A DNA stretch of 64,000 nt from Actinobacteria bacterium RBG_16_68_21 (GCA_001767695.1 MELR01000015.1:39887-103886), one strand, 5' to 3'; counted from the stretch's first letter, positions 3,302 to 63,227 are shown. Numbers and translations are program-made. Notes: generated by a model not told the origin, from the letters alone.

Positions 3302-3343
3302 CGGCGGCTGAGGGGCCGGCCGCGGCGCGATAGCCTGAGCGGG

Positions 3344-5158: not shown

Positions 5159-5920
5159 ATGCCCCAGCCTCGGATCGTCATCTCCCCCGACCGCTTCGAC
5201 GCGGTGATCTTCGACCTGGACGGGGTGATCACCGACACCGCCCGGGTCCACCTCGTCGCCTGGAAGCGCCTGTTCGACGAGTACCTGGCGGTTGTGGATC
5301 CGGATGCGACGGGATTCAGCGACGACGACTACCTCCGCTTCGTCGACGGCCGGGCGCGCATCGACGGGGTCGAAGCGTTCCTCGCCTCACGGGGAATCCA
5401 CCTCGACCACGGCGACGCCGACGATCCACCCGACGCCCCCACCGCCTGGGGCCTGGCCAACCGCAAGAACGGCTACTACCTGGACGCCCTCGCCGTGGAG
5501 GGCGTCGACGTCTTCGCCTCGTCGGTGGGGGTGGCCGAACAGGCGCGCGCCGCCGGGATGGGCACCGCGGTGGTCACCGCCAGCAAGAACCGGGATCAGG
5601 TGCTCGCCATCGCCGGCCTCGCGCGCCTGTTCGACGCCCACGTCGACGGCATCGACGCCGAGCGAATCGGTCTGGCGGGAAAACCGGACCCGGCAACCTT
5701 CCTCGAAGCGGCCCGGCGTCTCCAGGTCGACCCGGAGCGTGCGGTGGTGGTTGAGGACGCCATCGCCGGGGTGGAAGCGGGACGACGGGGCGGGTTCGGC
5801 CTGGTGATCGGCGTCGACCGCCGCCACCAGGGCGCTGCCCTGCTGAGCGGCGGGGCGGACGTGGTCGTCGCCGACCTCGCCGAGGTCGCCGTCGCCGCCG
5901 TACCGGGAGGGACCTGGTGA
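5159..5920 (+). CDS. HAD-superfamily hydrolase, beta-phosphoglucomutase-like.
   Basis: Motif I FDLDGVITDT. Downstream GKPDPATF and VVEDAIAGVEAG. ATGA overlap (5917-5920) with the GH65 gene. The start is the internal Met MPQPRIV of track ORF 5069..5920. Confidence 0.75.
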   Translation: MPQPRIVISPDRFDAVIFDLDGVITDTARVHLVAWKRLFDEYLAVVDPDATGFSDDDYLRFVDGRARIDGVEAFLASRGIHLDHGDADDPPDAPTAWGLANRKNGYYLDALAVEGVDVFASSVGVAEQARAAGMGTAVVTASKNRDQVLAIAGLARLFDAHVDGIDAERIGLAGKPDPATFLEAARRLQVDPERAVVVEDAIAGVEAGRRGGFGLVIGVDRRHQGAALLSGGADVVVADLAEVAVAAVPGGTW

Positions 5921-13096: not shown

Positions 13097-14245
13097 CTAG
13101 TACAGGAACATCGGCTTGCCGGGGACGTGGCGCACCTTGGGGCGATAGGCGTCCACGTCGTAGAGCTCGCCGACGTCGACCCGCTTGACCCCCTCGCCTG
13201 TCACCGAGAGCGGCACCGCGGTGTAGGTGCCGCCGCGCAGGGCCACCATCCGGCCGGTGGCGCCCTCCATGGCGAGGTCGGCGGCCATCACCGCGTAGTT
13301 GGTGGCGACCATCAGGTCGAGAGAATCGGGGCGGCCGGAGCGGGCCAGGTAGGCGATGTTCTGGTTGATGATGCCGACACCGGTCTTCTGCTTGAGCAGG
13401 GCGCCGACGTGCTCGCCGATCCCGCCCAGCTTCTGGTGGCCGAAGGCGTCTGCCTCGCCGCTGAGCATCATGTCCCCACCCTCGATGGTGGCGCCTTCCG
13501 AGACGGTGCAGATGGCGTAGTTGGATGGGTTGCGCCCGCGGTCCTCCATCAACAAGGCGGTCAGCTTGTCGATGTCGAACGGAACCTCGGAGATGAGCGC
13601 CCGGTCGACGCTCGACAGGTAGGCGGTGATCAGCGAGGTCTCTCCCGAGTAGCGGCCGAACAGCTCGATGACCGCGATCCGTTCGTGACTTCCTGCAGCC
13701 GTGCGGAGGTTGTGGACGAAGTCGACCCCCCGGGTCACCGCGGTCGAGAACCCGATGCAGTAGTCGGTGCCGTGGACGTCGTTGTCCATCGTCTTGGGGA
13801 TGGCGATGACGTGCATGCCCTCGTTGTGGAGGCGGAGGCCGTAGGAGAGCGTGTCGTCGCCCCCGATGGGAATGAGGACGTCGATGCCCTGGCTCTCGAG
13901 CACCTTGAGGACGTGTTCGGTGAGGTCGTGCGGTCCGTCGCCCTGGACGCTTGCGGCGAGGAAGTCGGGCACGGCGCCGGATTTCACCTTGGATGGATTG
14001 GTTCGGCTGGAGTGGAGCACGGTCCCGCCGCTGCGGTCGATGGTGCGCACCGATGCCGGGTCGAGCGGCACCAGGTTCTCGGCGATCGATGCCGGGTCGT
14101 CTGGGTTGGTGGCGACGAGCCCTCCCCAGCCACGGCGGATGCCCACCATCGAGTGACCGGCCTCGGCGACCCGGATGACTGCCGCCTTGATGCTCGGATT
14201 CAGCCCGGGGACGTCGCCGCCCCCGGTGAGGATGCCGATTCGCAT
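13097..14245 (-). CDS. pfkA: 6-phosphofructokinase.
   Basis: [26 protein letters not shown] and IPKTMDNDV are canonical PFK motifs. Confidence 0.85.
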
Positions 14246-14320
14246 GTTCCTCCTCCTGACTCGCAGACTAGGGCGTCCGCGGGCAGCACCGGCGGCTGGT
14301 GCGGACTCCGGGGCGCGGGC

Positions 14321-21221: not shown

Positions 21222-21332
21222 CCGTGCATCCGGTCGTGCCACGCCAGCAACTCGGGTCTCGGGGCCGTGCCGTTGGCCCCTACCTCGGCGTCGGGCCGTT
21301 GCGGACAATCAATCAGTAGGGGAGGGAGGCGG

Positions 21333-22436
21333 ATGCGGGAGTACATCGACGGGTCTACGGCGATAGTGCGCGGGGCACTCGACGCCGGGTGCACCTTCTT
21401 CGCCGGATACCCGATAACTCCGGCTTCGGGGATCCTCATGGCGATGATGCGCGAGCTCCCCAAGGTGGGCGGCGTGGCGATCCAGGGAGAGGACGAAATC
21501 GCCTCGATCGGCATGTGCATCGGGGCGACCCTCGCCGGATCCAGGGCGATGACGGCCACCAGCGGTCCCGGCATCAGCCTCTACAGCGAGAACATCGGGC
21601 TGGCGGTGATGGGCGAGGTGCCGCTGGTCATCGTGGACGTGCAGCGGCTCGGTCCCTCGACGGGAGGGGCGACCACGGTCTCCCAGGGCGACGTCCAATT
21701 CGTGCGATGGGGGACCGGAGGCGGGTTTCCAATCATCGCCCTCGCCCCATCGACCGTCACCGAGTCGTACTGGCTCACCGCCAAGGCATTCGACCTGGCC
21801 GAGCGCTTCCGGTGTCCGGTGTTCGTCGTCACCGACAAAGAGCTGGCCACCACTCTGACCACCGTCGACCTCGAGTCCTATCCGACGATCCAGGTCCGTG
21901 ACCGGGAGGTCGGGTCGGGTGGGCCGCCGTACCGCTACGCCCCCGCCGACGAAGTGGCGCCGCTGCACGAGTTCGGTCGCGGGGCGACCGTGCGGTTCAC
22001 CGGCTCGACCCACGACACCGGGGGGTACATCACCAAGCACCTCCCCACCGTCGACGCCCTCAACCGCCATCTATCCGAGAAGATCGAGGACCATCGCGAC
22101 GAGATCGAGCTCGCCGACGCGGACCTGGAGGACGGCGCCCCGACCCTTGTCATCGGTTACGGCGTCACCGGGGGAGCGGTGCGCGCCGCCGTTGCCGAGG
22201 CGAGGCGCCGGGGAATCAGAGTCTCCGGGCTGGTGGTGCAGAGTCTGTGGCCGATTCCGGAGACGGTGATCCGCCGCGCCATGGAGGGAGTGGACCGGGT
22301 GGTCGTCCCCGAGTTGAACCTGGGGCTCTACCGGCGCGAGGTGGAGAGGATCGCCGCAGGTAGATCGGTGGTCGGGGTGAACCGGGTGGATGGCGAACTG
22401 ATCGACGTGGACCAGATCGTGGAGGCTGTGACGTGA
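21333..22436 (+). CDS. korA: 2-oxoglutarate (2-oxoacid):ferredoxin oxidoreductase subunit alpha.
   Basis: MREYIDGSTAIVRGALDAGCTFFAGYPITPAS...ATSGPGISL. An RBS ggagggagg lies 5 nt upstream. Confidence 0.85.
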   Translation: MREYIDGSTAIVRGALDAGCTFFAGYPITPASGILMAMMRELPKVGGVAIQGEDEIASIGMCIGATLAGSRAMTATSGPGISLYSENIGLAVMGEVPLVIVDVQRLGPSTGGATTVSQGDVQFVRWGTGGGFPIIALAPSTVTESYWLTAKAFDLAERFRCPVFVVTDKELATTLTTVDLESYPTIQVRDREVGSGGPPYRYAPADEVAPLHEFGRGATVRFTGSTHDTGGYITKHLPTVDALNRHLSEKIEDHRDEIELADADLEDGAPTLVIGYGVTGGAVRAAVAEARRRGIRVSGLVVQSLWPIPETVIRRAMEGVDRVVVPELNLGLYRREVERIAAGRSVVGVNRVDGELIDVDQIVEAVT

Positions 22437-23743
22437 CCGTCGACATCACCCCGCTGCGCCGGTACCGCAACGAGACTCCCTACCCGTTCTGTCCCGGCTG
22501 TGGGCACGGCAGCATCCTCGACAAACTGTCCGAGGCGCTGGCGACCATCGACATCGATCCGGCGAGCGTCGTTGTGGTGAGCGACATCGGGTGTGCCGGG
22601 CTCTCCGACCAGTACTTCGACACCAGCGCGTTCCATGGACTCCACGGGCGCAGCATCACCTACGCCACCGGCGTCAAGCTGGCACGTCCCGAGCTGACCG
22701 TGATAGTGATCATGGGCGACGGCGGTACCGGCATCGGCGGAACCCATCTGATCAACGCGGCGAGACGGAACGTCGGCATCACGGTCCTCGTGTTCAACAA
22801 CCTCAACTTTGGGATGACCGGAGGTCAGCACTCGACAACCACACCAGATGGGGCGGTGACCGCCACGACCCCGGGAGGGAATCTGGAGCATCCGCTCGAC
22901 ATCTGCGCCACGGTCGGGGTCAACGGTGCCGGGTACGTGTATCGGGGGACCAGCTTCGACGACGATCTCTCGACGCGTATCGTCGAGGCGATCCGGCACC
23001 CCGGGTTTGCCCTCCTGGACATTTGGGAGCTGTGCACCGCGTATTTCGTGCCGGCGAACAAGTTCACCCGCCGCGGGCTGGAGTCGACCATCGAGCGGCT
23101 CGGGCTGGCGACCGGCGTCCTGTATCAGCACGACGTCGCCGAGTACGCCACGGCGTATCGGGCGGCATCGCGGGACCTGCCCTCCCGGATGCGGCCGGTG
23201 GGCATTCCCACCACCCACCCATCGCCGCTCACCGACACGACGTCCCTGGTCGTCGCCGGTTCGGCCGGCGCCAAGGTCCGTTCGGCGGCACGGCTGGTAG
23301 GCGAGGCGGCGATCAGGTCGGGGCTGTGGGCGACCCAGCGCGACGACTACCCGGTGACCGTGAAGACCGGGCACAGCCTCTCCGAAGTGGTGCTCGGCCC
23401 GCGCCCGGCGGCGCCGGTTGGGGTGACCGTTCCGGACGTGGCCGTCGTCGTCTCCGCCGATGGCCTGCGCAAGGTCCAGCCGATGCTGGCGGCGATGGGA
23501 CTGAACGGCGTGGTCTTCACCATCCCCGAGTTCGCCGACGTGGTGACCGGAGCCCGGTTGGTGGTGATCGATCCGACGGCATCCCCGGTGCGGATCCCCA
23601 AGGCGCAGCTCGCCCTGGTCCTGCTCACCGCCGCCGTCGCCCGTCTGGGTCTGTTTCCGGTGGAGGCCATGACCGAGGCGGCCGCCGCCGGAGCCTTCGC
23701 CGAGGAGAACCTGGCGGCGATAGAGGCGGGGCGGGGACTCTGA
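22433..23743 (+). CDS. korB: 2-oxoacid:ferredoxin oxidoreductase subunit beta (TPP-binding) with a C-terminal gamma-like extension.
   Basis: GTGA overlap with korA. FCPGCGHGSI...VSDIGCAG...IMGDGG is the TPP/Fe-S region. Confidence 0.85.
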   Translation: MTVDITPLRRYRNETPYPFCPGCGHGSILDKLSEALATIDIDPASVVVVSDIGCAGLSDQYFDTSAFHGLHGRSITYATGVKLARPELTVIVIMGDGGTGIGGTHLINAARRNVGITVLVFNNLNFGMTGGQHSTTTPDGAVTATTPGGNLEHPLDICATVGVNGAGYVYRGTSFDDDLSTRIVEAIRHPGFALLDIWELCTAYFVPANKFTRRGLESTIERLGLATGVLYQHDVAEYATAYRAASRDLPSRMRPVGIPTTHPSPLTDTTSLVVAGSAGAKVRSAARLVGEAAIRSGLWATQRDDYPVTVKTGHSLSEVVLGPRPAAPVGVTVPDVAVVVSADGLRKVQPMLAAMGLNGVVFTIPEFADVVTGARLVVIDPTASPVRIPKAQLALVLLTAAVARLGLFPVEAMTEAAAAGAFAEENLAAIEAGRGL

Positions 23744-23847
23744 GGCGAGCTCTCTTGTCGGGTTCGCGCTCTGGTTGACATCCCTCATGAACGGCGATAA
23801 CTTACTATCGCTAACTTACTGTCGATAAGTCACACGGGAGAGGTGTC

Positions 23848-26016
23848 ATGGAGAAGCTGGGTCGGTTCGTCGTTCGGTTGCGCTGGCCGGTGGTGATCGC
23901 CGCCCTCGTGTTCATGGCGGTGGCGGGAGCCGTCGGTGGCGGCGTCGCCGACTCCCTGTCCAACGGCGGGTTCCTCGATCCCAACGCCGAGTCGACCCTG
24001 GCGAGCGACCTCCTCGAGGACGGTTTCGGTGTGTCGGATCCGGCGGTCATCCTGGTGGTGAGCGCTCCCGGGGGTTCGGTGGACGATCCCGCGGTTGCCG
24101 CCGACGGCATCGCTCTCACTCAGGTCCTCGCCGCCGAGGAGGGCGTCACCGCGGCCTCGTCCTATTGGACGTTGGGGAGCCCACCGCCACTGCGAAGCTT
24201 CCGGGGCGATCGCGCCCTGGTGTTCGCCTCGATCGAGGGCGACCAGGGGGAGGTGCTCGATCACTCGGCAGCCATCTCGGACGAGTACCGAGGAAGCTTC
24301 GGTTCGCTCGAGGTGCTCGTCGGGGGCGTGGGGCCGCTCTTCTCCGAGGTGCAGGCGACGGTCGAGGCCGACCTGGCCCGGGCGGAACTGATCGCCTTCC
24401 CTCTGACCGCGGTGCTGCTCATCGTCGTCTTCGGCAGCCTGGTGGCCGCCTCCTTGCCGCTGGCCATGGGAGGACTCGCCATCGTCGGCTCACTCCTCAT
24501 CCTCCAGGTCCTCACCGGCTTCACCGAGGTCTCCATCTTTGCCCTCAACCTGACGACCGCGCTCGGCCTCGGTCTGGCGATCGACTACTCGCTCTTCATT
24601 GTGTCCCGCTTCCGTGAGCAACTCGGCCGGGGCGACCAAACCGGGGACGCGGTGGTGGCCACGGTGCGCACTGCCGGACGGACCGTGCTGTTCTCCGCAG
24701 CCACGGTTGCCGTCTCGCTGGCGGCGATGATCATCTTCAAGCTCGCCTTCCTGCGCTCGTTCGGATATGCCGGCATCGCCGTCGTCCTCATGGCGGCGAT
24801 CGGGGCGGTCGTCGTGTTGCCGGCGATCCTCGCCATCCTTGGCTCCCGGGTGGAGAAGGGCCGGGTGCGCAAGGCGCGGCAGAGCGCGGTGGAGGACGGC
24901 GTCTGGCACCGGGTGGCCACGTTTGTGATGCGGCGCCCGATTCCCATCGCCACCGCCGCCCTGCTGTTCCTCGTGGTTCTCGGGTTGCCGTTCCTGGGCG
25001 TGAACCTCGGGCAATCAGACGACCGGATGCTGTCGACGACGTCCAATGCCCGCACCACCGGCGACGTGATGCGCGCCGAGTTCTCGGCGTTCGAGTCGGC
25101 TCCGGTCGACGTCATCTTCCCCGGCCTCGCCGACACCTCCGAGGCCGACGCGCTGGCGGTCACGCTGTCCCGGCTCGACGGGGTGGCGCGAGTCGATGGT
25201 CCCACCGGGTCCTACATCGCGGGCTTCAACGTGATCTCCGGGGGCCCGGCATACGGTCGCTTCACCGCGGATGCCGGCATGTTCTTCTCGGCGATACCGT
25301 CGGTGGAGCCCAACGGCCCGGAGGCCGAGGCACTGGTCGACGAGATCCGGAGTCTCGACGTCGGCCGCACTCTCCTGGTGGGGGGAACGTCGGCGTTCCT
25401 CCACGACACCAAGGCATCACTGCTCGGCGACCTTCCCTGGACCCTGGGAGTCATCGCCGTCGTCACGTTCGTGCTGCTCTTCCTGATGTTCGGATCCGTC
25501 GTGGTTCCGGCCAAGGCGCTGGTACTCAACGTGCTCTCCCTCTCGGCGACCTTCGGCGCCCTCGTCTGGGTGTTCCAGGAGGGGCACTTCGCCGACCTGC
25601 TCGGTGTCACCGCCACCGGGTCTCTGGAGATCACGATGCCGATCCTCATGTTCTGCATCGCCTTCGGGCTCTCGATGGACTACGAGGTGTTCCTGCTCAG
25701 CCGCATCAAAGAGGAGCACGACCTCGGTGCGGACAACGTCGCTTCGGTGGCCCGCGGGCTGGAGCGGACCGGGCGGATCGTCACCGCGGCCGCGGTGCTG
25801 ATCGCGGTCGTGTTCCTGGCGTTCGCCACGTCCGAGGTGTCGTTCATGAAGATGTTCGGCGTCGGCATGACACTCGCCGTCCTCGTGGATGCCTTCGTGG
25901 TGCGGGCGACGCTCGTGCCCGCGTTCATGAGGCTCGCCGGCAATGCCAACTGGTGGGCGCCGCGGTGGATGAAGCGGATCTACAACCGGTTCGGGATCAG
26001 CGAGGTGACCGAGTGA
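23848..26016 (+). CDS. MMPL family (RND superfamily) transporter.
   Basis: 722 aa. Two 6-TM bundles. GLAIDYSLFIVSRFRE and GLSMDYEVFLLSRIKEE duplicated motifs. Confidence 0.85.
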   Translation: MEKLGRFVVRLRWPVVIAALVFMAVAGAVGGGVADSLSNGGFLDPNAESTLASDLLEDGFGVSDPAVILVVSAPGGSVDDPAVAADGIALTQVLAAEEGVTAASSYWTLGSPPPLRSFRGDRALVFASIEGDQGEVLDHSAAISDEYRGSFGSLEVLVGGVGPLFSEVQATVEADLARAELIAFPLTAVLLIVVFGSLVAASLPLAMGGLAIVGSLLILQVLTGFTEVSIFALNLTTALGLGLAIDYSLFIVSRFREQLGRGDQTGDAVVATVRTAGRTVLFSAATVAVSLAAMIIFKLAFLRSFGYAGIAVVLMAAIGAVVVLPAILAILGSRVEKGRVRKARQSAVEDGVWHRVATFVMRRPIPIATAALLFLVVLGLPFLGVNLGQSDDRMLSTTSNARTTGDVMRAEFSAFESAPVDVIFPGLADTSEADALAVTLSRLDGVARVDGPTGSYIAGFNVISGGPAYGRFTADAGMFFSAIPSVEPNGPEAEALVDEIRSLDVGRTLLVGGTSAFLHDTKASLLGDLPWTLGVIAVVTFVLLFLMFGSVVVPAKALVLNVLSLSATFGALVWVFQEGHFADLLGVTATGSLEITMPILMFCIAFGLSMDYEVFLLSRIKEEHDLGADNVASVARGLERTGRIVTAAAVLIAVVFLAFATSEVSFMKMFGVGMTLAVLVDAFVVRATLVPAFMRLAGNANWWAPRWMKRIYNRFGISEVTE

Positions 26017-26642
26017 CGGCCCGAGCGAGGTCGCGGGCGCGCAAAGGGGATGGCGACCTCCTCGCCGACCAGATCCTTGACGCTGCCGAGGCGCTGCTCG
26101 TCGAGCGGGGCTCGGTGGAGGCGGTGTCGATCCGGGAGGTCGCCCGCCGGGTAGGGGTGACCTCACCGGCCATCTACCTCCACTTCGCCGACAAGGAGGA
26201 TCTGTTCTACCAGTGCTGCCGCCGCGGCTTCGCCAACCTGGCGAGCCGGATGGAAGCGGTCCGCGGCGAAGGGAGTTCCCTCGATCAGCTGCGGCGCCTG
26301 GGGCGCGCCTACGTCGAGTTCGGCCTGAAGAAGGGCTCCCAGTACCGGGTGATCTTCGGGGGAGTGCCGCCCCACCCGGCCCATTCGGACGATCCGGGGG
26401 ATCTCCCCGGGGTACGCGCCTTCGAGATCCTGCTCGAGACGGTCGGGTCCGGCATCGCCGCCGGGGAGTTCCGCGACGACCTCGACCCCGTGGCGCTGGC
26501 GGTGGCGGTGTGGTCGGCGGTGCACGGCGCGGTGCTCATCCTCCTCTCCAAGGACGCCACCCACGACGCGGTGCCTATTCCCGATTCGGCAGCCGTGGTC
26601 GACGCGGTCCTGGGCGTCGTCGGCAGCGGGGTTCGCTCGTAG
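26013..26642 (+). CDS. TetR/AcrR family transcriptional regulator.
   Basis: GTG at 26013 overlaps the MMPL stop (26014-26016). HTH SIREVARRVGVTSPAIYLHFADKEDL. Confidence 0.8.
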   Translation: MTARARSRARKGDGDLLADQILDAAEALLVERGSVEAVSIREVARRVGVTSPAIYLHFADKEDLFYQCCRRGFANLASRMEAVRGEGSSLDQLRRLGRAYVEFGLKKGSQYRVIFGGVPPHPAHSDDPGDLPGVRAFEILLETVGSGIAAGEFRDDLDPVALAVAVWSAVHGAVLILLSKDATHDAVPIPDSAAVVDAVLGVVGSGVRS

Positions 26643-26709
26643 GGTGTGAGCCGCGAGGGAAGGGGCCGGATGACCGGCCCCTTCCCTCCGTTTGAAGCAC
26701 CCGATGCGG

Positions 26710-26907
26710 TCAGTGGGTGGCGGTGCCGGCAGTGTGTGCCAGCCAGGTGCCGACGACGATCAGGCCGTGCCCGATCGCGTGCCGGGCCCGGGCAATCGGC
26801 CCGGCACGGCCGTCGATGGTGTTCAGTACCCGGCGAGTGGCGGCTGCGCGTATGCGGTCGTCGATGATTGCCGAGGACAGTTCGCTCATCAGTTGCGGGT
26901 TGTTCAT
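26710..26907 (-). CDS. Small hypothetical protein (65 aa) with one C-terminal hydrophobic helix.
   Basis: An AGGAGA RBS lies 6 nt before the ATG. It sits immediately downstream of the ArsR-type fusion regulator on the same strand. MNNPQLMSELSSAIIDDRIRAAATRRVLNTIDGRAGPIARARHAIGHGLIVVGTWLAHTAGTATH. Confidence 0.4.
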   Translation of the reverse strand: MNNPQLMSELSSAIIDDRIRAAATRRVLNTIDGRAGPIARARHAIGHGLIVVGTWLAHTAGTATH

Positions 26908-26917
26908 TGCGTCTCCT

Positions 26918-28003
26918 CTATTCGTCTTCGAGAAACCCGGCCAGCAGACGGGCGGCGTCGGGGACCGCGCCACCGCGCAGGCTGTACTCCGATTCGGCGC
27001 CCAGGGTGATCCGGACCAGACCGGCCCGGCGGAGGACGCTGAGATGGTGGTGGACGGTGGACTTGGCGAGCGCGATGCGGGCGGTGATGTCGCTGAGCGA
27101 CGCCGGGCCGTCCCTGAGGATCTTGAGCAGGCGCAGTCGCCGCTCGTCGCCGAGGGCCTTGTAGACCTCGACCAGCCAGGCGGGCGGCGTGTCCGCGTCG
27201 GCGTCGAGGTGCTGTTCCGCCACCGGGTAGCAGAACACCCGGCTTCGCTCGTGTTCGGTGATGGTCACCCACGGTCGGATCACCACCGAGGGGATGAGCA
27301 CGATGCGGTCGACGTCGGGCACCATCGTGAATGTGACCCCGTTGGTTGCCGTCTCCACGAGTTGCGGCGACTCCATCGTGCCGGCGAGAGCGCGTTTGTG
27401 ATCGGCGTCGCGGGCGAGCACGATCCCGACCCCATCGCCATCGCCGAAGACGTCGCGGGCGAACGACAGCAGCGTCCCGGCAAGCAGTTCGGTCGACTCG
27501 GTAGGCGGTGTCTCGAGCAGCCGGCACAGTGCGTCGGGGATCTCGCACCCATCCCCGGACACGACCCGCTTGAGGGCGGAGGCATCGCCGGCGACCGCGG
27601 CGCCGACCAGATCCCTTTCTTCCTGGGTGTGGCAATGCTCCCGGGCCAGGCCGAGCAGGTCTTCCCAGAGCTTGGCGGGGTCCCTTTCCCGGAGACGGGT
27701 GGCGAGCGCCTCGGGTGACCGGTCCGGGCCGAGGGCGAGGGCTTCCCCGATGAGTGCGACCCACACCCCTCCCAGCCCGGCGAGTCGGTCGAGACCGGTA
27801 CTGAGATCGGGGCTCGCCTGCTCCCGCACCCGGTCATACCACGAAGGATCGACGGCGAAATCGGCGAGCTCGCCGGCGTCATGCGACGAGTAGACGAAGA
27901 GGCTGAGCAGCAGCTCGAACAGCGGGTCGGCGACGATGTCCACCGGGAGCCCCGATGCGGTTTCTCCGGTGTAGTCCTTGATGCGAGGGCCGGTGACCGT
28001 CAT
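26918..28003 (-). CDS. Two-domain regulator: an unknown N-terminal domain of about 250 aa fused to a C-terminal ArsR-type winged HTH.
   Basis: C-terminus EVYKALGDERRLRLLKILRDGPASLSDITARIALAKSTVHHHLSVLRRAGLV is ArsR/SmtB HTH_20. I do not recognise the N-terminal part. Confidence 0.65.
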   Translation of the reverse strand: MTVTGPRIKDYTGETASGLPVDIVADPLFELLLSLFVYSSHDAGELADFAVDPSWYDRVREQASPDLSTGLDRLAGLGGVWVALIGEALALGPDRSPEALATRLRERDPAKLWEDLLGLAREHCHTQEERDLVGAAVAGDASALKRVVSGDGCEIPDALCRLLETPPTESTELLAGTLLSFARDVFGDGDGVGIVLARDADHKRALAGTMESPQLVETATNGVTFTMVPDVDRIVLIPSVVIRPWVTITEHERSRVFCYPVAEQHLDADADTPPAWLVEVYKALGDERRLRLLKILRDGPASLSDITARIALAKSTVHHHLSVLRRAGLVRITLGAESEYSLRGGAVPDAARLLAGFLEDE

Positions 28004-28208
28004 GTTCGTGACCTTTCGAAGGTTCTATCGACGTAAGGCGTTCGATCAAGATCGAACATACGACATCAGCCGACGGTTGTCAAGGGGGAGTTGGCTTCGG
28101 GGCGTTTGGCCGTCGAGAAGGCGACCTTCCCGTGGGTAGTCTTGGTGGGACGATTCGGCCCGGAGGTGGGCCCCGATCGGCATCGAGGGCCGGAAAGGAT
28201 GGGATTCC

Positions 28209-29522
28209 ATGGGAGCGACGCGGGCCCTGTTCGCCCGGCGCGTCGCCGCCATCGGTACCGAGGAGGCGTTCGCCCTGGGGGCGCTCATCGCCGAGGTGGA
28301 AGCCGAGTCGGGTCCGGTGATCCGCTGCAATCTCGGCCAACCGGACTTTCCCCTTCCCACCCACATCGCCGATGCGGTGGTGGCGGCGATCCGTGCCGGC
28401 AAGACCACCTACTGCGATCCCCAGGGCCTCCCCGAGGTGCGCGCCGCGATCGCCGCCAAGGTGGGCACCGATCGCGGCCTCGACCTCGATCGCGAACGGG
28501 TCGTGGTCTTCGCCGGCGGGCGGCCGCCGATCGGTCTTGCCCAGCATGCGTATGTCGAGGAGGGTGACGAGGTGATCTACCCGTCCCCCGGCTACCCACT
28601 GTTCGAGTCGTTCATCCGCTACATCGGCGGGGTTCCGGTGCCGCTGCGGCTCCGTGAGGAATCCGGGTTCAACTTCACGGGCCCCGATCTCGGCGAGTTG
28701 ATCTCGGCGCGCACCAAGCTGATCTTCGTCAACTTCCCCTCCAACCCCACCGGGGGAGTCGCCAGCCGCGAGCAGCTCACCGAGATCGCCGAAGTGATCC
28801 TGGAGCGGACCGGTCCCGAAGTGCGGGTCTACTCGGACGAAGCCTACGAGGCGATCGTGTTCGACGGGGCGGTGCACGCCTCGATCGCATCGATCCCCGG
28901 CATGGCGGAGAGGACGATCATCGCTTCAGGGGCATCCAAGACCTACTCGTGGACCGGGGGACGGATCGGCTGGGGGGTATACCCGTCGGTCGACGAGGCC
29001 CTGGTGCAGCGGCGCCTCAACATCAACTACTTCGCCTCGATCCCGCCGTACAACCAGCTCGGCGTGCTGACCGCGCTGCAGTCACCGGAGTCCCCTGCTG
29101 CGATCGCCAAGATGGTGGAGGCATTCCAGCGGCGGCGCGACCTGGTGGTAGATGCCATCAACGCCATCGACGGGGTCACCTGCACGCGACCACTCGGGGC
29201 GTTCTATGTCTTTCCCAACGTGTCGGGCGCCCTCGAGCGCGTTGGGGCGTTCGAGGCGTTCGCCGCACTGCCCGAAGAGGTCAGGCGCAAGTCGTCACCG
29301 GCCACGCTCTTTCAGCTGTTCTTCCTGTACCGCTACCGGGTGGCGACCATGGACCGCCGATCGTTCGGCGTTCTCGGTTCGGAGGGGGAGAACTACCTGC
29401 GGGTGTCGATCGCCACCGGCGACGACGATCTGGCGGAGGCGATGGATCGGCTGGCCGCGGCCGCCGCCGACGTGTCCGGCTTCGAGGAGTTCGTGGCGTC
29501 CGGGCGGAGACTCACACTGTGA
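28209..29522 (+). CDS. Pyridoxal-phosphate-dependent aminotransferase, class I/II.
   Basis: SGASKTYSWTGGRIGW is the PLP-lysine region. NFPSNPTGG. 437 aa. Confidence 0.8.
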   Translation: MGATRALFARRVAAIGTEEAFALGALIAEVEAESGPVIRCNLGQPDFPLPTHIADAVVAAIRAGKTTYCDPQGLPEVRAAIAAKVGTDRGLDLDRERVVVFAGGRPPIGLAQHAYVEEGDEVIYPSPGYPLFESFIRYIGGVPVPLRLREESGFNFTGPDLGELISARTKLIFVNFPSNPTGGVASREQLTEIAEVILERTGPEVRVYSDEAYEAIVFDGAVHASIASIPGMAERTIIASGASKTYSWTGGRIGWGVYPSVDEALVQRRLNINYFASIPPYNQLGVLTALQSPESPAAIAKMVEAFQRRRDLVVDAINAIDGVTCTRPLGAFYVFPNVSGALERVGAFEAFAALPEEVRRKSSPATLFQLFFLYRYRVATMDRRSFGVLGSEGENYLRVSIATGDDDLAEAMDRLAAAAADVSGFEEFVASGRRLTL

Positions 29523-31873
29523 AGGACAACGCGGCGGCCGACATGGGAGCTGCCACGACCAGAGGGTTCGGTCCCCGCCGTGCGGTGTGGATCGATGTCG
29601 CCGCCGCCGAGGACGACTTCGAGCCCTCCACGATCGAGACGATCGAGCGTTTCGATCTGGTGTACCGCTCGCTGGTTTCGATCATGTTCAACTTCACCCA
29701 GTCGGGGCATCCCGGCGGCTCGGTGTCCTCCGGGCGGATCGTCTCATCGGTCCTCCTCGAGGGGCTCGACTACGACATCGGTGATCCCAATCGGCCGGAC
29801 GCCGACATCGTCTCCTATGCCGCGGGGCACAAGGCGTTGGGCCTTTATGCGATGCTCGGGCTCAGGGACGAGATCTGCAGGATCGCCGCCCCCGAGTTGC
29901 TGCCCGGCGCCGATAACCTCAGGCTGCGTTTCGAGGACATGCTGGGCTTCCGGCGCAATCCCACCCAGCCGACCCCGCTGTTCGGCAAGTTCGGGTCGAA
30001 AGCGCTGGACGGGCACCCGACACCGGCGACCCCGTTCGTCAAGCTGGCCACCGGGCCGTCCGGCGTGGGGGTGGCTTCGTCGATGGGCCTGGCGGTCGCA
30101 GCCGCCGACTACTACGGCACCGACGCCCCGCGCATCCACATCGTCGAGGGCGAGGGTGGCCTGACCCCGGGTCGGGTGGTCGAGGCGCTGGCGTTTGCCG
30201 GCACCGCGGGCCTGTCCAACGTAGTGATGCATCTCGACTGGAACCAGGCGTCCATCGACTCCGATACGGTCACCCGCGAGGGCGACCATCCCGGGGACTA
30301 CGTGCAGTGGGACCCGATGGAGCTCTTCTACCTCCACGACTGGAACGTCGTGGCGGTGCCCGACGGCTTCGACGTGGGCTTGGTGCTCACCGCGCAGCGC
30401 CGGGCTCAGCAGATCGACAACGGGCAACCGACCGCGATCGTCTATCGGACCACCAAGGGTTGGCGGTACGGGATCGAGGGGAAGAAGTCGCACGGCGGTG
30501 GTCACAAGATGGGCTCGGCGGCCTACCTCGACTCGCTCGCCCCCTTGTTCGGGGACGACGTCACCGGTTTGCCGTCGGCCGATGGCACAGACCCGATCGC
30601 CACCGAGGCCGCCTACTGGGCAACGCTGGAACGGGTGCGAGCGGTGCTCGCCTCCGATCCGATGACCCCGGCCGTTGCCGGGCGGGTGCGCGCCGCCTCC
30701 GATCGTCTCGCCTCCTGGAGGAGAATCCCCCGGGTGGGAGCCCCCGACGTCGAGGCGATCTACCGGGGGCTCGATCCGACCACCACGCCGGAGGGGCTGC
30801 AGCTCGAACCGGGAGGCGCCACCGCGCTTCGCCAGCAGCTGGGCAGAGTGCTCGGCCACCTGAATGCCGCCTCGGGAGGGGCCCTGCTCATCGCCGCGGC
30901 CGACCTGCTCGGATCGACCGCGATCTCCGACGCCGCGGCCGGGTTCCCTGCCGGGTTCTACCACCGCCGCGACAACCCGCTGTCGCGAACCCTGGCGGTG
31001 GGCGGAATCTGTGAGGACGGCCTCACCGGGGTGATGACCGGAGTATCGGGCTACGGCCGCCATGTCGGTGCCGGAGCTTCATATGGGGCGTTCATCGCAC
31101 CGCTCGGGCACATCGCCGCCCGGGTCCACGCGATCAGCGACCAGATGCGCCGCCAGACCGACCCCAGCCCGCCCCGGCCGGTGGTGATCGTGTGCGGGCA
31201 CGCCGGCCTGAAGACCGGCGAGGACGGCCCGACCCACGCCGATCCCCAGGCGCTGCAGCTCATGCAGGAGAACTTCGTCCCCGGTTCGGCGGTGACCCTC
31301 ACCCCGTGGGAACCCCAGGAGCTGTGGCCGATGGTCGCCGCGGCGTTCGCCGCCCGCCCGTCGGTGATCGTTCCGTTCGTGACCCGCCCCTCCGAAGCGA
31401 TCCTCGATCGGGCCGCACTCGGCCTGGCGCCGGCGGCCGAATCCACCCGGGGGGTGTACCGACTGAAGGCTGCCTCCGGCGACTCGGCGGGCGCGGTGGT
31501 GCTGCAGGGCTCCGAGGTGACCTACGCGTTCGTCCAGGAGACCATGCCTCTCCTCGAGGCGGCCGGGATCGATCTCGATGTCTACGTGGTGACCAGTCCG
31601 GAGTTGTTCGACCTGCTGGATCCCGCCGAGCGAGAGGCGACCTTCCCCGACTCCGTGGCTCGGAACGCGATGGGGATCACCGGCTTCACACTGCCGACCA
31701 TGTATCGGTGGGTTACCGGCGAGGTGGGTCGAGCCCACACGCTCCACCCCTTCCGGGGCGGCCATTACCTGGGGAGCGGGGTCGGGGCGATGGTGATCCA
31801 CGAGGCGGGCCTGGATGGCCCAGGGCAGTTCGCCGGCATCACGCGGTTCATTGCCGCGATGGACGCCCGGTAG
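29519..31873 (+). CDS. Divergent transketolase-family thiamine-diphosphate enzyme.
   Basis: GTG at 29519 overlaps the aminotransferase stop (GTGA). TQSGHPGGSVSSG...SYAAGHKALGLYAMLG is the TPP-binding N-domain. GEDGPTHADPQALQLMQ is the transketolase GEDGPTH motif. The track ORF start at 28949 is upstream junk in the same frame. Confidence 0.7.
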   Translation: MKDNAAADMGAATTRGFGPRRAVWIDVAAAEDDFEPSTIETIERFDLVYRSLVSIMFNFTQSGHPGGSVSSGRIVSSVLLEGLDYDIGDPNRPDADIVSYAAGHKALGLYAMLGLRDEICRIAAPELLPGADNLRLRFEDMLGFRRNPTQPTPLFGKFGSKALDGHPTPATPFVKLATGPSGVGVASSMGLAVAAADYYGTDAPRIHIVEGEGGLTPGRVVEALAFAGTAGLSNVVMHLDWNQASIDSDTVTREGDHPGDYVQWDPMELFYLHDWNVVAVPDGFDVGLVLTAQRRAQQIDNGQPTAIVYRTTKGWRYGIEGKKSHGGGHKMGSAAYLDSLAPLFGDDVTGLPSADGTDPIATEAAYWATLERVRAVLASDPMTPAVAGRVRAASDRLASWRRIPRVGAPDVEAIYRGLDPTTTPEGLQLEPGGATALRQQLGRVLGHLNAASGGALLIAAADLLGSTAISDAAAGFPAGFYHRRDNPLSRTLAVGGICEDGLTGVMTGVSGYGRHVGAGASYGAFIAPLGHIAARVHAISDQMRRQTDPSPPRPVVIVCGHAGLKTGEDGPTHADPQALQLMQENFVPGSAVTLTPWEPQELWPMVAAAFAARPSVIVPFVTRPSEAILDRAALGLAPAAESTRGVYRLKAASGDSAGAVVLQGSEVTYAFVQETMPLLEAAGIDLDVYVVTSPELFDLLDPAEREATFPDSVARNAMGITGFTLPTMYRWVTGEVGRAHTLHPFRGGHYLGSGVGAMVIHEAGLDGPGQFAGITRFIAAMDAR

Positions 31874-31972: not shown

Positions 31973-32422
31973 ATGTTCGTGCAGTACTACGGGTTGGTGC
32001 CGGTTCCGCTGGATCGCGCGGAGACGCGGCTGCTCGGGCTGCTCGACGGCCTCAGCGAGTCTGCCGACATCGCCTACCGCCACGGCGAAGAGATGCTCGC
32101 CCGGATCCGCGGGGGGGAGAGCAAGGTGGCCAAGACGGTCAAGCTCGAGGTAGGGGCCCCATCGCGGCGCGAGACCCAGGTCACCCTTCCCCTCTCGTGG
32201 TGGGCTACGGGGACTCCCTTCCTCTTCCCGACCATGGACGCCGAATTGGTGCTGGCCGCCATGGGACCGCAGCTCACCCAGGTGACGCTCCAGGGAACCT
32301 ACAAGCCGCCGATCGGCCCGGTGGGCCGCGCCCTCGACAAGGCCCTGCTGCACCGTTTTGCCGAGGCGAGTGTCAAGGACTTCGTCGATCGGGTGGTCGA
32401 GGGCCTCGGCGCCGACGGCTGA
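31973..32422 (+). CDS. Hypothetical protein.
   Basis: 149 aa. ATG start. Coding-like composition. No family recognised. Confidence 0.45.
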   Translation: MFVQYYGLVPVPLDRAETRLLGLLDGLSESADIAYRHGEEMLARIRGGESKVAKTVKLEVGAPSRRETQVTLPLSWWATGTPFLFPTMDAELVLAAMGPQLTQVTLQGTYKPPIGPVGRALDKALLHRFAEASVKDFVDRVVEGLGADG

Positions 32423-35973: not shown

Positions 35974-36708
35974 ATGGCAACCACTGACGATCTGAGTTCG
36001 CAGCGGTTCTACCACGGTACGAAGGCCGACCTGAAGCCAGGGGACCTGATCGTGTCCGGCCAATCGCCCAACTCCGGTGAACAGGATCGGGCAACCGGCT
36101 ACGTCTACCTGACCGGCACCCTGGATGCGGCCGCCTGGGAAGCGGAGCTGGCACCCGGCGACGGTCCAGGCAGGATCTACATGGTCGAACCGACCGGCCC
36201 GATCATGGATGACCCGGACCTCACGGGTAAGAAGTATCCGGGTCCGGCGAAGTCATACCGCTCCCGAGAGCCGCTGCGGGTCACGGGTGAGGTCACGGAT
36301 TCGCAGGGGCGCCCGCTGCGGTTCTACCACGGCACGAAGGCTGACTTGAAGCCAGGGAACCTGATCGGGCCCGGCCACTCTCCCAACTTCGGTGAACAGG
36401 ATCGGGTAACGGACTACGTCTACCTGACCGGCACCCTGGATGCGGCAATCTGGGGGGCGGAGCTGGCACTTGGCGGTGGAGCGGGCAGGATCTACGAAGT
36501 GGAACCGACCGGCCCGATCATGGACGACCCCAATCTGACGAACATGAGGTATCGAGGCAATCCGACGAAGTCCTATCGCTCTCGAGAGCCGCTGCGGGTC
36601 ACGGGTGAGGTCACGGATTGGCAGGGGCACCCCCCGGAGACACTCCAGGCCATGAAGGACGGCCTGGAGCAACTCAAGAAGCTTGGTGTTGAGCCGATCG
36701 AGGACTGA
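35974..36708 (+). CDS. arr: Arr-family (NAD+:rifampin ADP-ribosyltransferase-like) protein. It contains two tandem Arr repeat units of about 105 aa each.
   Basis: RFYHGTKADLKPGDLI...YVYLTGTLDAAAWEAELA...RIYMVEPTGPIMDDPDLT...KSYRSREPLRVTGEVTD is repeated almost exactly from aa 117. The second copy ends ...DWQGHPPETLQAMKDGLEQLKKLGVEPIED, as in single-domain Arr proteins. The nucleotide repeats are 36007..36321 and 36322..36636. Confidence 0.75.
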   Translation: MATTDDLSSQRFYHGTKADLKPGDLIVSGQSPNSGEQDRATGYVYLTGTLDAAAWEAELAPGDGPGRIYMVEPTGPIMDDPDLTGKKYPGPAKSYRSREPLRVTGEVTDSQGRPLRFYHGTKADLKPGNLIGPGHSPNFGEQDRVTDYVYLTGTLDAAIWGAELALGGGAGRIYEVEPTGPIMDDPNLTNMRYRGNPTKSYRSREPLRVTGEVTDWQGHPPETLQAMKDGLEQLKKLGVEPIED

Positions 36709-36901: not shown

Positions 36902-37735
36902 CTAACGGAACAGGTGCCTGCCGAGGAATGCGGTGATGTCACCGGCGTGGGGCAGAAAGCGGTCGAGGTCGCTGTGGCCGCCGCCGTCGACGATCAGCAC
37001 CTCGGCGTCGGGACGTGCCGCCGCCAACTGGTGGAGGTTCTCCAACGGCACCACCTGGTCGGCGGCGCCGTGCACCAGCAAGGTCGGGACCCGCACCAGA
37101 GGGATCCGGTTGCGGGGGGCGAAGTCCTCGAAAGGCTGGCCGATTGCCCTCTGCATGATGGCGAGGGCTGCGGCGCGCACCGGTCGCGGCGCCGACGCCA
37201 TCTGCTGGCGCATCAGCGCACCGGGATCTGCCGGCGACGCCACCGACACCAGGACCTGAAGTGCACCGCCCCGCGAGGCGCTGAGGATCGCTGCCCCGCC
37301 CCCGACCGAGTGGCCGACGACACCGATCGTGGTGACCTCCTCACGCCCCGAGAGCCAGCCGAGCGCCGCGTCGAGGTCGTCGGCGAAACGGGGCATCGAC
37401 ACGAACCGGCGACGATCCGAGAGGCCGTGGTTGCGGACGTCGAGGAACAGCGAGTGAAACCCGGCCCGGTGCAGATGGGGAGCCAGCGGGAGCATCAGGG
37501 ATGCGTTGCCGCCCCAGCCGTGAAGGACGACAACGGCGGGAGCGGAACCTGCGACCGGGATGAACCAGGCGTGGAGGCGGGGACCGCCCGGAGCCTGCAA
37601 CCACACCTCCTCCTCGGGAAGGCCGAGTGCGCTGGGGGCGGACACACCGCGAGCGACGCCAAGGCGGACGTGGTCGATGCGGTGGGGGGAGACCAACCAC
37701 AGCCACTTGCGCAGGCCGCGGAGTCGGGTGGTCAC
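36902..37735 (-). CDS. Alpha/beta-hydrolase fold protein.
   Basis: VVLHGWGGN and GHSVGG (nucleophile elbow). The GTG start overlaps the TetR stop (GTGA at 37732-37735). The longer track ORF would run through the TetR gene. Confidence 0.7.
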   Translation of the reverse strand: MTTRLRGLRKWLWLVSPHRIDHVRLGVARGVSAPSALGLPEEEVWLQAPGGPRLHAWFIPVAGSAPAVVVLHGWGGNASLMLPLAPHLHRAGFHSLFLDVRNHGLSDRRRFVSMPRFADDLDAALGWLSGREEVTTIGVVGHSVGGGAAILSASRGGALQVLVSVASPADPGALMRQQMASAPRPVRAAALAIMQRAIGQPFEDFAPRNRIPLVRVPTLLVHGAADQVVPLENLHQLAAARPDAEVLIVDGGGHSDLDRFLPHAGDITAFLGRHLFR

Positions 37736-38355
37736 GCCCGGGCGATCCCGACGTCGCCGACCTCGCCCAGGCCGGCGTCGAGGAGGTCGAAGCACCTGGC
37801 CATGAGGTCGGGTAGGGATGCCTGGCCGCCTCCGGCCAGCCACATGGCCATCGAGGCCCGCATGGCGGAGAGTGCTGCGCCGGCGAGCAGTCGGGGCACT
37901 ATTTGGAGGTCGGGGTCCGGCCTCAACCATCCGGCGACGATCCCGGCCACGGCGGCCTCCCACTCCGCCTGGAGCTTGAGGCTGCGGGCACCGACGGACG
38001 GCACCGTGGTGATGATCCGGAATCGACGCAGCATCTGCGCCCGCTCGCTCTCGTAGTCGGCCGACACGGCGACGAACGCCGCTCGCAGCGATCGCCATGG
38101 CGACTCGTCGGCGGGACCCTCCTCCAATTCCGATACCAACCGGCCCAGGCGGGCGGCGTAGTCGGCGAGGACCACGTCCTCCTTGGAGGGGAAGTAGTGG
38201 AAGAAGGTCCGAGGAGCGATGTCGGCGGCGGCGGCGACCTCGTCGACCGTGGTGCTGTTGAACCCTCGCTGCTCGAAGAGGTCGAGGGCGGCGCGCTCGA
38301 TGGCGCCCCGGGTGCGCGCCTTCTTGCGCTCGCGCAGGGTGGCGTCGCCGGACAT
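37732..38355 (-). CDS. TetR/AcrR family transcriptional regulator.
   Basis: RTRGAIERAALDLFEQRGFNSTTVDEVAAAADIAPRTFFHYFPSKED. Divergent from the MMPL gene at 38452. Confidence 0.8.
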   Translation of the reverse strand: MSGDATLRERKKARTRGAIERAALDLFEQRGFNSTTVDEVAAAADIAPRTFFHYFPSKEDVVLADYAARLGRLVSELEEGPADESPWRSLRAAFVAVSADYESERAQMLRRFRIITTVPSVGARSLKLQAEWEAAVAGIVAGWLRPDPDLQIVPRLLAGAALSAMRASMAMWLAGGGQASLPDLMARCFDLLDAGLGEVGDVGIARA

Positions 38356-38451
38356 GGGCTCAGAGTATCACGGATCGCTGCATGTCACGCATATTTGCGT
38401 TAACTGCGAAATTGCCTAGAGTGCACGCGACCTCGACACAAGGAACCGCAC

Positions 38452-51606: not shown

Positions 51607-51673
51607 GTCTCCTTCACCCTACGCCGGGGGCCTCGGGTTCGCACGGGCATTTCGTCCTACGGCGATCGGTCGG

Positions 51674-63129: not shown

Positions 63130-63227
63130 GGGAGAACCCTAGGCCCGTCCTGCCCCATGCCTGGCTCGCGTCCCGGGGGAGGCGACCCTCCCCGGGTGAC
63201 GAGGCATCGGCGTCAGGTCGTGTTTTC

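Follow-up and report, generated by a model that had tools for sequence, protein, structure and literature searches.

A coupled aminotransferase and transketolase-like gene pair of uncultured bacteria and its possible place between amino-acid and sugar-phosphate metabolism

What does a transketolase-like enzyme do when its gene is joined to that of an aminotransferase rather than to the genes of the pentose-phosphate pathway? This question is raised by a 64,000-nucleotide stretch of DNA from Actinobacteria bacterium RBG_16_68_21 (GCA_001767695.1, MELR01000015.1:39887-103886; hereafter the window, with positions counted from its first letter). The window carries on its plus strand the gene for a 437-amino-acid (aa) pyridoxal 5'-phosphate (PLP) aminotransferase of class I, subgroup Ib and aspartate-aminotransferase-like (28209..29522; PF00155 match), followed by the gene for a 784-aa transketolase-like thiamine diphosphate (TPP) enzyme (29519..31873; recognized with Pfam, NCBIfam, AlphaFold2 plus Foldseek, and hhalign). 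An earlier note, made from the sequence alone, had proposed that the two enzymes form a dedicated two-step pathway leading to an amino-polyol or amino-sugar-like metabolite. The analysis described here supports the first half of that proposal and not the second: the best explanation of the pair is a self-contained, laterally mobile metabolic module that joins amino-acid and sugar-phosphate metabolism.

The two genes meet at the junction GGGCGGAG (29503..29522, plus strand), which consists of a Shine-Dalgarno-like stretch, a GTG start and an overlapping stop. The GGAG at 29506-29509 sits 9 nucleotides (nt) 5' of the GTG of the transketolase-like gene (29519-29521), and this GTG overlaps the aminotransferase stop codon TGA (29520-29522). 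As the aminotransferase open reading frame (ORF) ends with CTG TGA, the GTG shares its first base with CTG and its other two with TGA, which gives the GTGA overlap described in the earlier note. The ORFs, the Pfam matches and an independent gene call by the Joint Genome Institute (JGI), in which both genes are called with the same overlapping start on an identical metagenome contig, agree on this arrangement. A 4-nt overlap is also present in the closest relatives (L006, L007 and L009, L numbers denoting the homologous loci collected in this study) and further in L075 and L082, and CTGTGA at the 3' end of the aminotransferase gene is recurrent in the Acidimicrobiia/Actinomycetota relatives and in some Gemmatimonadota. 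The start codon inside the stop is one of two candidates, however: an ATG at 29543 (M9), 24 nt downstream of the GTG, is equally plausible because nearly all homologues open with M(S/T)RAFGPRR, corresponding to residues 13-21 of the window protein, which has eleven additional residues after the GTG compared with the homologue starts. Use of this ATG would give a 776-aa protein and a 20-nt gap, and the intergenic distance is at most 20 nt whichever start applies. The aminotransferase and transketolase-like genes are an operon whose translation is coupled or nearly coupled. Its promoter presumably lies in the intergenic region 28004..28208, delimited by the coordinates of the aminotransferase gene and of an upstream ArsR-type regulator gene. 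The single sigma-70-like site near the pair (28083-28055) would serve the minus-strand gene, and a scan of the locus revealed no Rfam riboswitch or noteworthy Rfam match and no terminator-like site delimiting the operon.

The product of the second gene is a divergent and long member of the transketolase family, as had been suspected. Pfam recognizes Transketolase_N (4.5e-18) and Transket_pyr (1.8e-8) in the 784-aa protein, with Transketolase_C_1 under the Pfam cut-off, and its scores fall far under the cut-offs of the curated transketolase models (NF004559, 123.1 vs 488 bits; TIGR00232, 90.4 vs 682.25 bits; two further models, 74.3 vs 575 and 54.5 vs 788 bits). Its identity to solved transketolases is about 20-23%. 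Sequence searches of the PDB, whether started from the protein itself or from a family profile, retrieved transketolases only (E ~1e-21 to 1e-26), and hhalign aligned the protein to Escherichia coli TktA with a probability of 98.5%. The AlphaFold2 model (predicted local distance difference test score, pLDDT, 81.8; predicted template modelling score, pTM, 0.85) was compared with the PDB using Foldseek; the top 50 matches were all transketolases, with template modelling (TM) scores of 0.64-0.68 (about 0.66) normalised to the query and 0.73-0.80 normalised to the target, at 18-22% identity. As modelled, the protein has the full three-domain transketolase fold, made up of a PP domain (residues ~46-330), a helical linker (~331-435), a Pyr domain (~436-625) and a C-terminal domain (~640-784), preceded by a family-specific N-terminal segment (~17-45, including FGPRR and W24). 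The additional length has four sources: this conserved N-terminal segment; a family-specific insertion of ~27 aa between H104 and H166 of the PP domain, in which D140 and R145 are invariant; some additional length in the loop that follows the metal-binding Asn; and a helical linker longer than that of transketolases. The GHPGG motif lies at residues 63-67. The N-terminal extension relative to TktA, put at about 55 aa in the earlier note, is ~25-38 aa family-wide, with conservation beginning at F17; the overall length of 784 (or 776) aa stands.

Is the active site that of a working transketolase? To map residues, the protein was aligned with solved transketolases and with TktA using HMMER and hhalign; in the TktA sequence used, the landmark residues were confirmed at their published positions. 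The TktA histidines H26, H66, H100 and H261 correspond to H64 (nt 29708), H104 (nt 29828), H166 (nt 30014) and H325 (nt 30491). D155 and N185 correspond to E212 (nt 30152) and N242 (nt 30242), the catalytic glutamate E411 to E499 (nt 31013), and the TPP-stacking aromatics F434 and F437 to Y522 and F525. D469 is matched by D569 (nt 31223) and H473 by H573 (nt 31235), and the phosphate site R358, S385, H461 and R520 by R438 (nt 30830), S466 (nt 30914), H561 (nt 31199) and R623 (nt 31385). Every mapped residue is invariant across 36 homologues, and the catalytic and phosphate-site residues (Y522 and F525 excluded) are unchanged in distant full-length members of 29-50% identity, the four phosphate-site residues being invariant even at that distance. 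The two exceptions among the distant members are one with Asp at the E212 position and P0195, the sequence of which is apparently corrupted. In the metal/TPP motif G211-E212-G213 ... N242, Glu thus replaces the usual Asp (GDG to GEG) at normal spacing, and this Glu is invariant but for the one distant member. Because the transketolase residue set is conserved, the protein almost certainly binds TPP and a divalent metal, and its chemistry most likely involves a dihydroxyethyl-TPP-type intermediate, with a phosphorylated sugar bound at the usual position. In a Geobacillus transketolase the double replacement H102L/H474S was needed for the enzyme to use pyruvate or 2-oxobutyrate instead of hydroxypyruvate (PMC7696235). 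H166 and H573 are the counterparts of these two histidines, and their invariance in the family favours a donor bearing a CH2OH group, i.e. a ketose or hydroxypyruvate.

The protein belongs to a compact family of ~770-800 aa. A search of 5.8 billion proteins returned full-length relatives of 744-796 aa with 64-84% identity from Actinomycetota, Acidimicrobiia, Gemmatimonadota and Longimicrobiales metagenome-assembled genomes (MAGs), and a HMMER search of 1.84 billion cluster representatives gave only 183 matches at E <= 1e-30, among them about ten full-length 50%-identity clusters reaching down to 29-50% identity. In GTDB contigs, with one genome per species, members were found in Acidimicrobiia/Actinomycetota, Gemmatimonadota, Planctomycetota/Phycisphaerae, Thermoanaerobaculia, Latescibacterota, Eisenbacteria, Pseudomonadota, Myxococcales, Bdellovibrionales, Desulfobacteraceae, Anaerolineales and Thermoleophilia. 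The best 80 genome loci listed (53-82% identity) are all from MAGs, and no cultured host appears among the loci listed, which comprise these 80 and metagenome contigs that carry no organism names. Members are 53-84% identical across lineages and 53-68% between phyla. This high cross-phylum identity, together with the patchy distribution, favours lateral spread of an accessory gene over vertical inheritance of a housekeeping one. Judged by these comparisons the transketolase-like protein is a separate, strongly conserved subfamily. It is annotated as 'transketolase' by JGI and, for the members that it names, as 'hypothetical protein' by NCBI.

We then asked how constant the aminotransferase partner is. 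In the genome set, 70 loci had adequate flank (at least 1.4 kb of upstream sequence) and aminotransferase genes were located by tblastn. In 49 of the 70 the gene immediately upstream, on the same strand, encodes an orthologue of the window aminotransferase (48-84% identity), with gaps of -10 to about +160 nt, and the identities of the two proteins to their window counterparts are correlated (r = 0.92). The partner is not always the same enzyme. Four Actinomycetota loci carry another class-Ib aminotransferase (~395 aa, 35-37% identical) just downstream in convergent orientation, and in a clade at 43% identity the order is inverted, with the gene for a third type of aminotransferase (406 aa) after the transketolase-like gene. 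A second sample, 80 metagenome loci retrieved with a five-sequence alignment of distant members, included 50 with adequate flanks; 26 of these have a nearby aminotransferase gene (25 within 400 nt), in five relative arrangements. When all 168 loci were clustered, an aminotransferase gene was present within 500 nt in 88, and it was the only neighbour to recur beyond lineage-specific synteny. The association of the two genes is far beyond chance, with an aminotransferase adjoining in about two thirds of the loci that have enough flank. Such a repeated and order-independent association with three aminotransferase subfamilies indicates a direct functional link, and co-inheritance of the pair in more than ten lineages, along with its rebuilding from different aminotransferase subfamilies and gene orders, supports the dedicated two-step module of the earlier note. 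We put the chance that the pair forms a dedicated module, separate from housekeeping transketolase, at somewhat better than even. In the Gemmatimonadota loci (L001, L002 and L017-L064) the pair has upstream of it, in divergent orientation, conserved genes for a GAF-HisKA_3 histidine kinase, a LuxR-type response regulator and a TonB-dependent receptor; in several species (L022, L030, L032 and L060) the aminotransferase gene is missing and the histidine kinase gene and the transketolase-like gene are still adjacent.

The aminotransferase itself matches PF00155 (Aminotran_1_2) at E = 1.8e-49. Its best NCBIfam model is the aspartate transaminase PRK06107, at 223.6 against a cut-off of 617 bits, and it likewise scores under the cut-off of the archaeal aspartate aminotransferase model (201 vs 550 bits). 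The best PDB match is Sinorhizobium meliloti AatB (6f35, 1.6e-59), followed by aspartate/prephenate aminotransferases of Phormidium, Pyrococcus, Thermus and Arabidopsis. The Schiff-base lysine for PLP is K244 (nt 28938-28940, plus strand) and the alpha-carboxylate arginine R398 (nt 29400-29402, plus strand); the cofactor ligands N179, D210 and Y213 are present, and R105 (in GGRPP) stands at the position of the class-Ib distal-carboxylate lysine. Compared with the Thermus thermophilus enzyme, the window protein has R for K in the GGKQ-like motif and Y for the PLP-stacking W. Orthologues of 48-88% identity come from the same lineages as the transketolase-like gene, and the name given by the Prokaryotic Genome Annotation Pipeline (PGAP) is a generic one only. 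By these features the enzyme is of the class-Ib aspartate-aminotransferase type and is predicted to interconvert alpha-amino and 2-oxo acids.

Which metabolite could link the two enzymes? Clues come from loci with variant operons. In L148 the transketolase-like gene is followed by co-directional genes for, first, a glycerate kinase (TIGR00045, 388 against a cut-off of 168 bits) and, next, a D-2-hydroxyacid dehydrogenase whose top scores are with glyoxylate reductase and the glyoxylate/hydroxypyruvate reductase GhrB. In L123 genes for a SsuA/TauC-like ATP-binding cassette (ABC) transporter, a dehydrogenase of the same kind, the aminotransferase, the transketolase-like protein and an NADP-glutamate dehydrogenase follow one another in this order and are co-directional, and in L004 and L012 the same group of dehydrogenase, aminotransferase and glutamate dehydrogenase genes is convergent with the transketolase-like gene. 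A serine hydroxymethyltransferase gene occupies the usual place of the aminotransferase, 184 nt upstream, in L035; in a Pfam census of the aminotransferase-less loci two members match this enzyme, and motif searches located the one locus. A gene for a GlcF-like Fe-S protein lies upstream, beside the transketolase-like gene, in L147 and L163. A HAD phosphatase gene is found near the L088 copy, and a RidA gene directly upstream in L079 and 1.4 kb downstream in L095. Genes for class II fructose-bisphosphate aldolase near the L112, L139 and L156 copies, for phosphoenolpyruvate (PEP) synthase near five Gemmatimonadota copies, and for several peptidases and amino-acid permeases near other copies add a gluconeogenic and peptide-utilisation flavour. 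Together the variant contexts point to the serine/glycine-hydroxypyruvate/glyoxylate-D-glycerate node and to growth on amino acids or peptides. Because the variant-operon genes indicate this node, we place the aminotransferase before the transketolase-like step; of the two reaction orders left open by the earlier note, ketol transfer followed by transamination found no support and the reverse is the one suggested by the variant operons.

Two of these loci have surroundings worth recording in their own right. In L123 (3352-5160) the permease and binding protein of the SsuA/TauC-like (NitT/TauT family) transporter are encoded on the same strand directly upstream, which hints at an imported substrate. 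The Actinomycetota variant locus L004 (1-9300 and 16600-22310) contains genes for xdhC, molybdopterin dehydrogenases, a SsnA-like amidohydrolase and a MocA-like nucleotidyltransferase, as well as two carbamoyltransferases, a carbamate kinase and PALP enzymes, a set that resembles the ygeW-ygfK/xdhD-type purine-degradation cluster of enterobacteria.

In the mechanism that we propose, the aminotransferase would take a small serine/glycine-family amino acid and deaminate it to the corresponding 2-oxo acid with 2-oxoglutarate as amino acceptor, the likeliest reaction being L-serine + 2-oxoglutarate -> hydroxypyruvate + glutamate; glutamate dehydrogenase, where present, would regenerate 2-oxoglutarate. 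The transketolase-like enzyme would bind the 2-oxo acid on TPP, decarboxylate it to dihydroxyethyl-TPP and pass the two-carbon ketol unit to an aldose phosphate (glyceraldehyde-3-phosphate, erythrose-4-phosphate or ribose-5-phosphate) held in the Arg/Ser/His/Arg phosphate site, yielding a ketose phosphate and CO2. The net result would be an irreversible flow of serine/glycine carbon into the pentose/hexose-phosphate pool, parallel to the route hydroxypyruvate -> D-glycerate -> phosphoglycerate. Decarboxylating 2-oxo-acid donors are familiar from related enzymes, hydroxypyruvate being used by transketolases and pyruvate by DXS, and to our knowledge every transketolase tested accepts hydroxypyruvate, an irreversible donor. 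This mechanism would explain the conservation of the phosphate site and, because common metabolites are formed, the absence of other dedicated enzymes from the minimal unit, and also why hydroxypyruvate-reductase and glycerate-kinase genes occur in some operons, since they serve an alternative fate of hydroxypyruvate. There is a natural precedent in anisomycin biosynthesis, where the aminotransferase AniQ feeds 4-hydroxyphenylpyruvate to AniP (PMC11387542). We assign a probability of roughly 35% to this reading, in which the aminotransferase makes a hydroxypyruvate-type 2-oxo acid and the transketolase-like enzyme uses it as a decarboxylating donor. The more specific idea that the pair is a natural shunt from serine (or glycine) to sugar phosphates, with hydroxypyruvate as the physiological donor of a dedicated decarboxylating subfamily, is more tentative again.

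Several points weigh against the hydroxypyruvate mechanism. The identity of the substrate is deduced from residues and a handful of variant operons, and each variant context amounts to one to five loci, some of them phylogenetically related. About one third of the adequately flanked loci have no adjacent aminotransferase gene, implying that the enzyme can work without a dedicated partner gene. The serine:pyruvate and serine:glyoxylate aminotransferases that we know of are class V and not class I enzymes. The residue set is equally compatible with the ordinary reversible reaction between ketose phosphates and aldose phosphates. Finally, glyoxylate, either as donor or as acceptor aldehyde, would also be consistent with the glyoxylate-reductase-like and GlcF-like neighbours.

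The strongest of the other explanations is that the protein is an ordinary transketolase of a divergent lineage, catalysing the reversible pentose-phosphate reaction, with neighbours that are co-expressed for growth on amino acids or peptides, when gluconeogenesis and pentose supply are both required. The transketolase fold, the invariance of all the catalytic and phosphate-binding residues and the label given by the JGI pipelines all agree with this, as do the gluconeogenic neighbours at some loci (PEP synthase, class II fructose-bisphosphate aldolase and glycerate kinase) and the third of the loci devoid of an aminotransferase. Nevertheless, an identity of ~20-23% with scores far under the equivalog cut-offs does not fit easily with a housekeeping enzyme, and 53-68% identity between phyla combined with patchy spread suggests a laterally spread accessory function. 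The earlier note had remarked that the gene lies away from tal, zwf and opcA, and indeed no tal, zwf, opcA or second transketolase gene was detected in the 64-kb window or in any fetched locus; a TktA probe detected the transketolase-like genes only in the window and in all fetched loci, and neither the 168-locus clustering nor the Pfam census of aminotransferase-less loci disclosed a tal, rpe, rpi or zwf neighbour. Without a direct metabolic link it would moreover be hard to see why the gene has repeatedly and independently become joined to three aminotransferase subfamilies, in five arrangements. We regard the ordinary-transketolase explanation as unlikely, although less so than the two that follow, and even if it were correct the tight conservation and the aminotransferase linkage would still need explaining.

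A glyoxylate or C2 variant of the pathway appears improbable. Here the aminotransferase would interconvert glycine and glyoxylate, and glyoxylate would either be the acceptor aldehyde for the ketol unit of a ketose phosphate or be decarboxylated to hydroxymethyl-TPP, the hydroxymethyl unit being added to an aldose phosphate or, in a glyoxylate-carboligase-like manner, to a second glyoxylate. The neighbouring 2-hydroxyacid dehydrogenases do score best against glyoxylate reductase, and the GlcF-like Fe-S protein upstream in L147 and L163 and the serine hydroxymethyltransferase upstream in L035 point the same way. Glycerate kinase, furthermore, completes the classical glyoxylate-carboligase glycerate pathway. 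These contexts come from very few loci, however, and the donor C1-hydroxyl histidines and the phosphate site are invariant, a pattern that a two-carbon ketol donor and a phosphorylated partner fit better than a glyoxylate-glyoxylate ligation. The glyoxylate carboligases that we know of also belong to a different TPP superfamily.

The amino-polyol product of the earlier note fares no better and looks quite improbable. According to this idea the transketolase-like enzyme would build a ketol sugar phosphate and the aminotransferase would aminate its keto group to a 2-amino-polyol or amino-sugar-like phosphate, or would act both before and after it. Some class I/II aminotransferases do aminate ketol phosphates, for example histidinol-phosphate aminotransferase, and the coupled gene order, aminotransferase first, does not set the order of the reactions. 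AniQ, too, acts both before and after the transketolase AniP (PMC11387542). Yet the window aminotransferase has alpha-amino-acid/2-oxo-acid enzymes as its nearest relatives and retains the alpha-carboxylate arginine, the glutamate dehydrogenase of the variant operons fits net deamination and not amine synthesis, and the contexts resemble primary metabolism and not biosynthetic clusters. Locus clustering found no phosphatase, acyltransferase, AniN-like reductase, other tailoring gene or exporter conserved with the pair.

Other identities were considered and set aside: DXS (TIGR00204, 17.8 vs 465.95 bits; none in the PDB sequence matches or the 50 best fold matches listed), phosphoketolase and 2-oxo-acid dehydrogenase E1 (no XFP, E1_dh or PDH_E1_M Pfam match at E <= 0.01, and transketolases only in the PDB sequence searches), an AniP-type aromatic-keto-acid transketolase (~600 aa, in the DXS clade and expected with AniN, against a 784-aa protein closest to transketolases proper), and also sulfo-transketolase, phosphonopyruvate or sulfopyruvate decarboxylase and PLP-biosynthesis (PdxB/SerC-like) functions, for which either the sequence evidence or the neighbours to be expected are missing.

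Around the pair, the window contains korA/korB, an MmpL transporter gene, the ArsR-type regulator gene, a small ORF, typA/bipA, and genes for a glyoxalase, Arr, a TetR regulator and a second MmpL. The regulator (26918..28003, minus strand, 361 aa) is divergent from the aminotransferase gene and has a C-terminal ArsR/SmtB-type helix-turn-helix (HTH) at about residues 280-345 (PF01022, residues 286-331; NF033788, 53.5 bits), preceded by an N-terminal part of ~280 aa that matches no family. Its gene is present on the identical JGI contig and absent from L006 and L007 and is thus not conserved with the pair; local regulation of the pair by this protein is possible. The small ORF (31973..32422, plus strand, 149 aa) separates the transketolase-like gene from typA and matches no Pfam or NCBIfam family. 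The gene call for the JGI contig includes it as well, and copies 72% identical occur at the same position in L006 and L007 only, so that its membership of the unit is doubtful. In L006 and L007 korA/korB, encoding 2-oxoglutarate:ferredoxin oxidoreductase, immediately precede the aminotransferase gene. In the window (21267-28003) the MmpL gene (23848-26016) and the ArsR-type gene (26918-28003, minus strand) separate korB from the aminotransferase gene, which looks like a local insertion. The region 37732-40749 has the TetR regulator gene (MftR-type C-terminal domain) divergent from that of the second MmpL, which is 30% identical to the MmpL of 23848-26016. The Arr (rifampin ADP-ribosyltransferase) ORF at 35974-36708 (plus strand, 244 aa) comprises two complete Arr domains, its halves being 79% identical, whereas typical Arr proteins have one domain and ~140 aa. 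At 3302-5044 (plus strand) a full-length bifunctional formiminotransferase-cyclodeaminase of 580 aa (FTCD_N, FTCD and FTCD_C) is encoded, an architecture better known from animals than from bacteria. Other central-metabolism genes encode a GH65 disaccharide phosphorylase (5755-8331, plus strand), a phosphofructokinase (13097-14320, minus strand), a malic enzyme (49906-51618, minus strand) and a gamma-glutamyltranspeptidase (61543-63138, minus strand); none of these four is linked to the pair in other genomes.

If the hydroxypyruvate mechanism were true, many uncultured Gemmatimonadota, Acidimicrobiia, Planctomycetota, Acidobacteriota and others would convert amino-acid carbon irreversibly to pentose and hexose phosphates through a shunt that avoids both the formation of PEP and the lower half of gluconeogenesis. 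Until now hydroxypyruvate has been viewed as an artificial transketolase donor for biocatalysis; were it the physiological donor, the pair would represent the first natural pathway to depend on decarboxylation by a transketolase, and it would offer ready-made enzymes for the transaminase-transketolase cascades that are now assembled artificially. The host lineages are abundant in soil, in sediment and in the sea, and few of their members have been cultured. Because the protein is labelled 'transketolase' or 'hypothetical protein', metabolic reconstructions of many environmental genomes count it as a pentose-phosphate enzyme or ignore it, although a separate conserved subfamily with its own partner enzyme would imply a separate reaction where amino-acid and sugar-phosphate metabolism meet.

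How does the pair compare with known systems? We found no published work on the transketolase-like family, and the only natural aminotransferase-transketolase pair that we found described, synthetic cascades aside, is AniQ/AniP of Streptomyces. The two systems are likewise clustered, and in both an aminotransferase-made 2-oxo acid is, or in the window pair would be, decarboxylated by a TPP enzyme and condensed with an aldehyde (PMC11387542). AniP, however, has 603 aa, groups with DXS, acts on aromatic keto acids and unphosphorylated glyceraldehyde, and is always found with the dehydrogenase AniN in a secondary-metabolite cluster, whereas the window pair has a conserved phosphate site, no AniN or short-chain dehydrogenase/reductase (SDR) conserved beside it and no cluster, and is spread over many phyla. 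DXS, which decarboxylates pyruvate and adds the resulting unit to glyceraldehyde-3-phosphate, carries out the type of reaction proposed here and differs from the window protein in domain arrangement and length. The route from serine via hydroxypyruvate and D-glycerate to phosphoglycerate would share the proposed hydroxypyruvate intermediate, and its reductase-like or glycerate-kinase genes are present in the L148, L123, L004 and L012 operons. That route employs a class V aminotransferase and needs no TPP enzyme, in contrast to the minimal conserved unit described here, which consists of the aminotransferase and the transketolase-like enzyme only. On the aminotransferase side, the class-Ib aspartate/prephenate aminotransferases (AatB 6f35, T. 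thermophilus aspartate aminotransferase and Arabidopsis prephenate aminotransferase) share the PLP lysine, the alpha-carboxylate arginine and the Asn/Asp/Tyr ligands with the window enzyme, which differs in having ~30 additional residues near 340-370 and in scoring under the equivalog cut-offs. Transketolase proper (EC 2.2.1.1; E. coli TktA, yeast Tkl1, human TKT) shares with the second enzyme the fold, the catalytic Glu, the active-site His and Asp residues, the TPP-stacking aromatics and the phosphate site; the subfamily is set apart by ~100-120 additional aa, GEG in place of GDG, an identity of ~20-23%, a conserved aminotransferase partner and a gene context free of pentose-phosphate genes. 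On the strength of these alignments and gene neighbourhoods, the protein represents a transketolase subfamily of its own, which is widespread among uncultured bacteria and has a conserved class-Ib aminotransferase as its partner.

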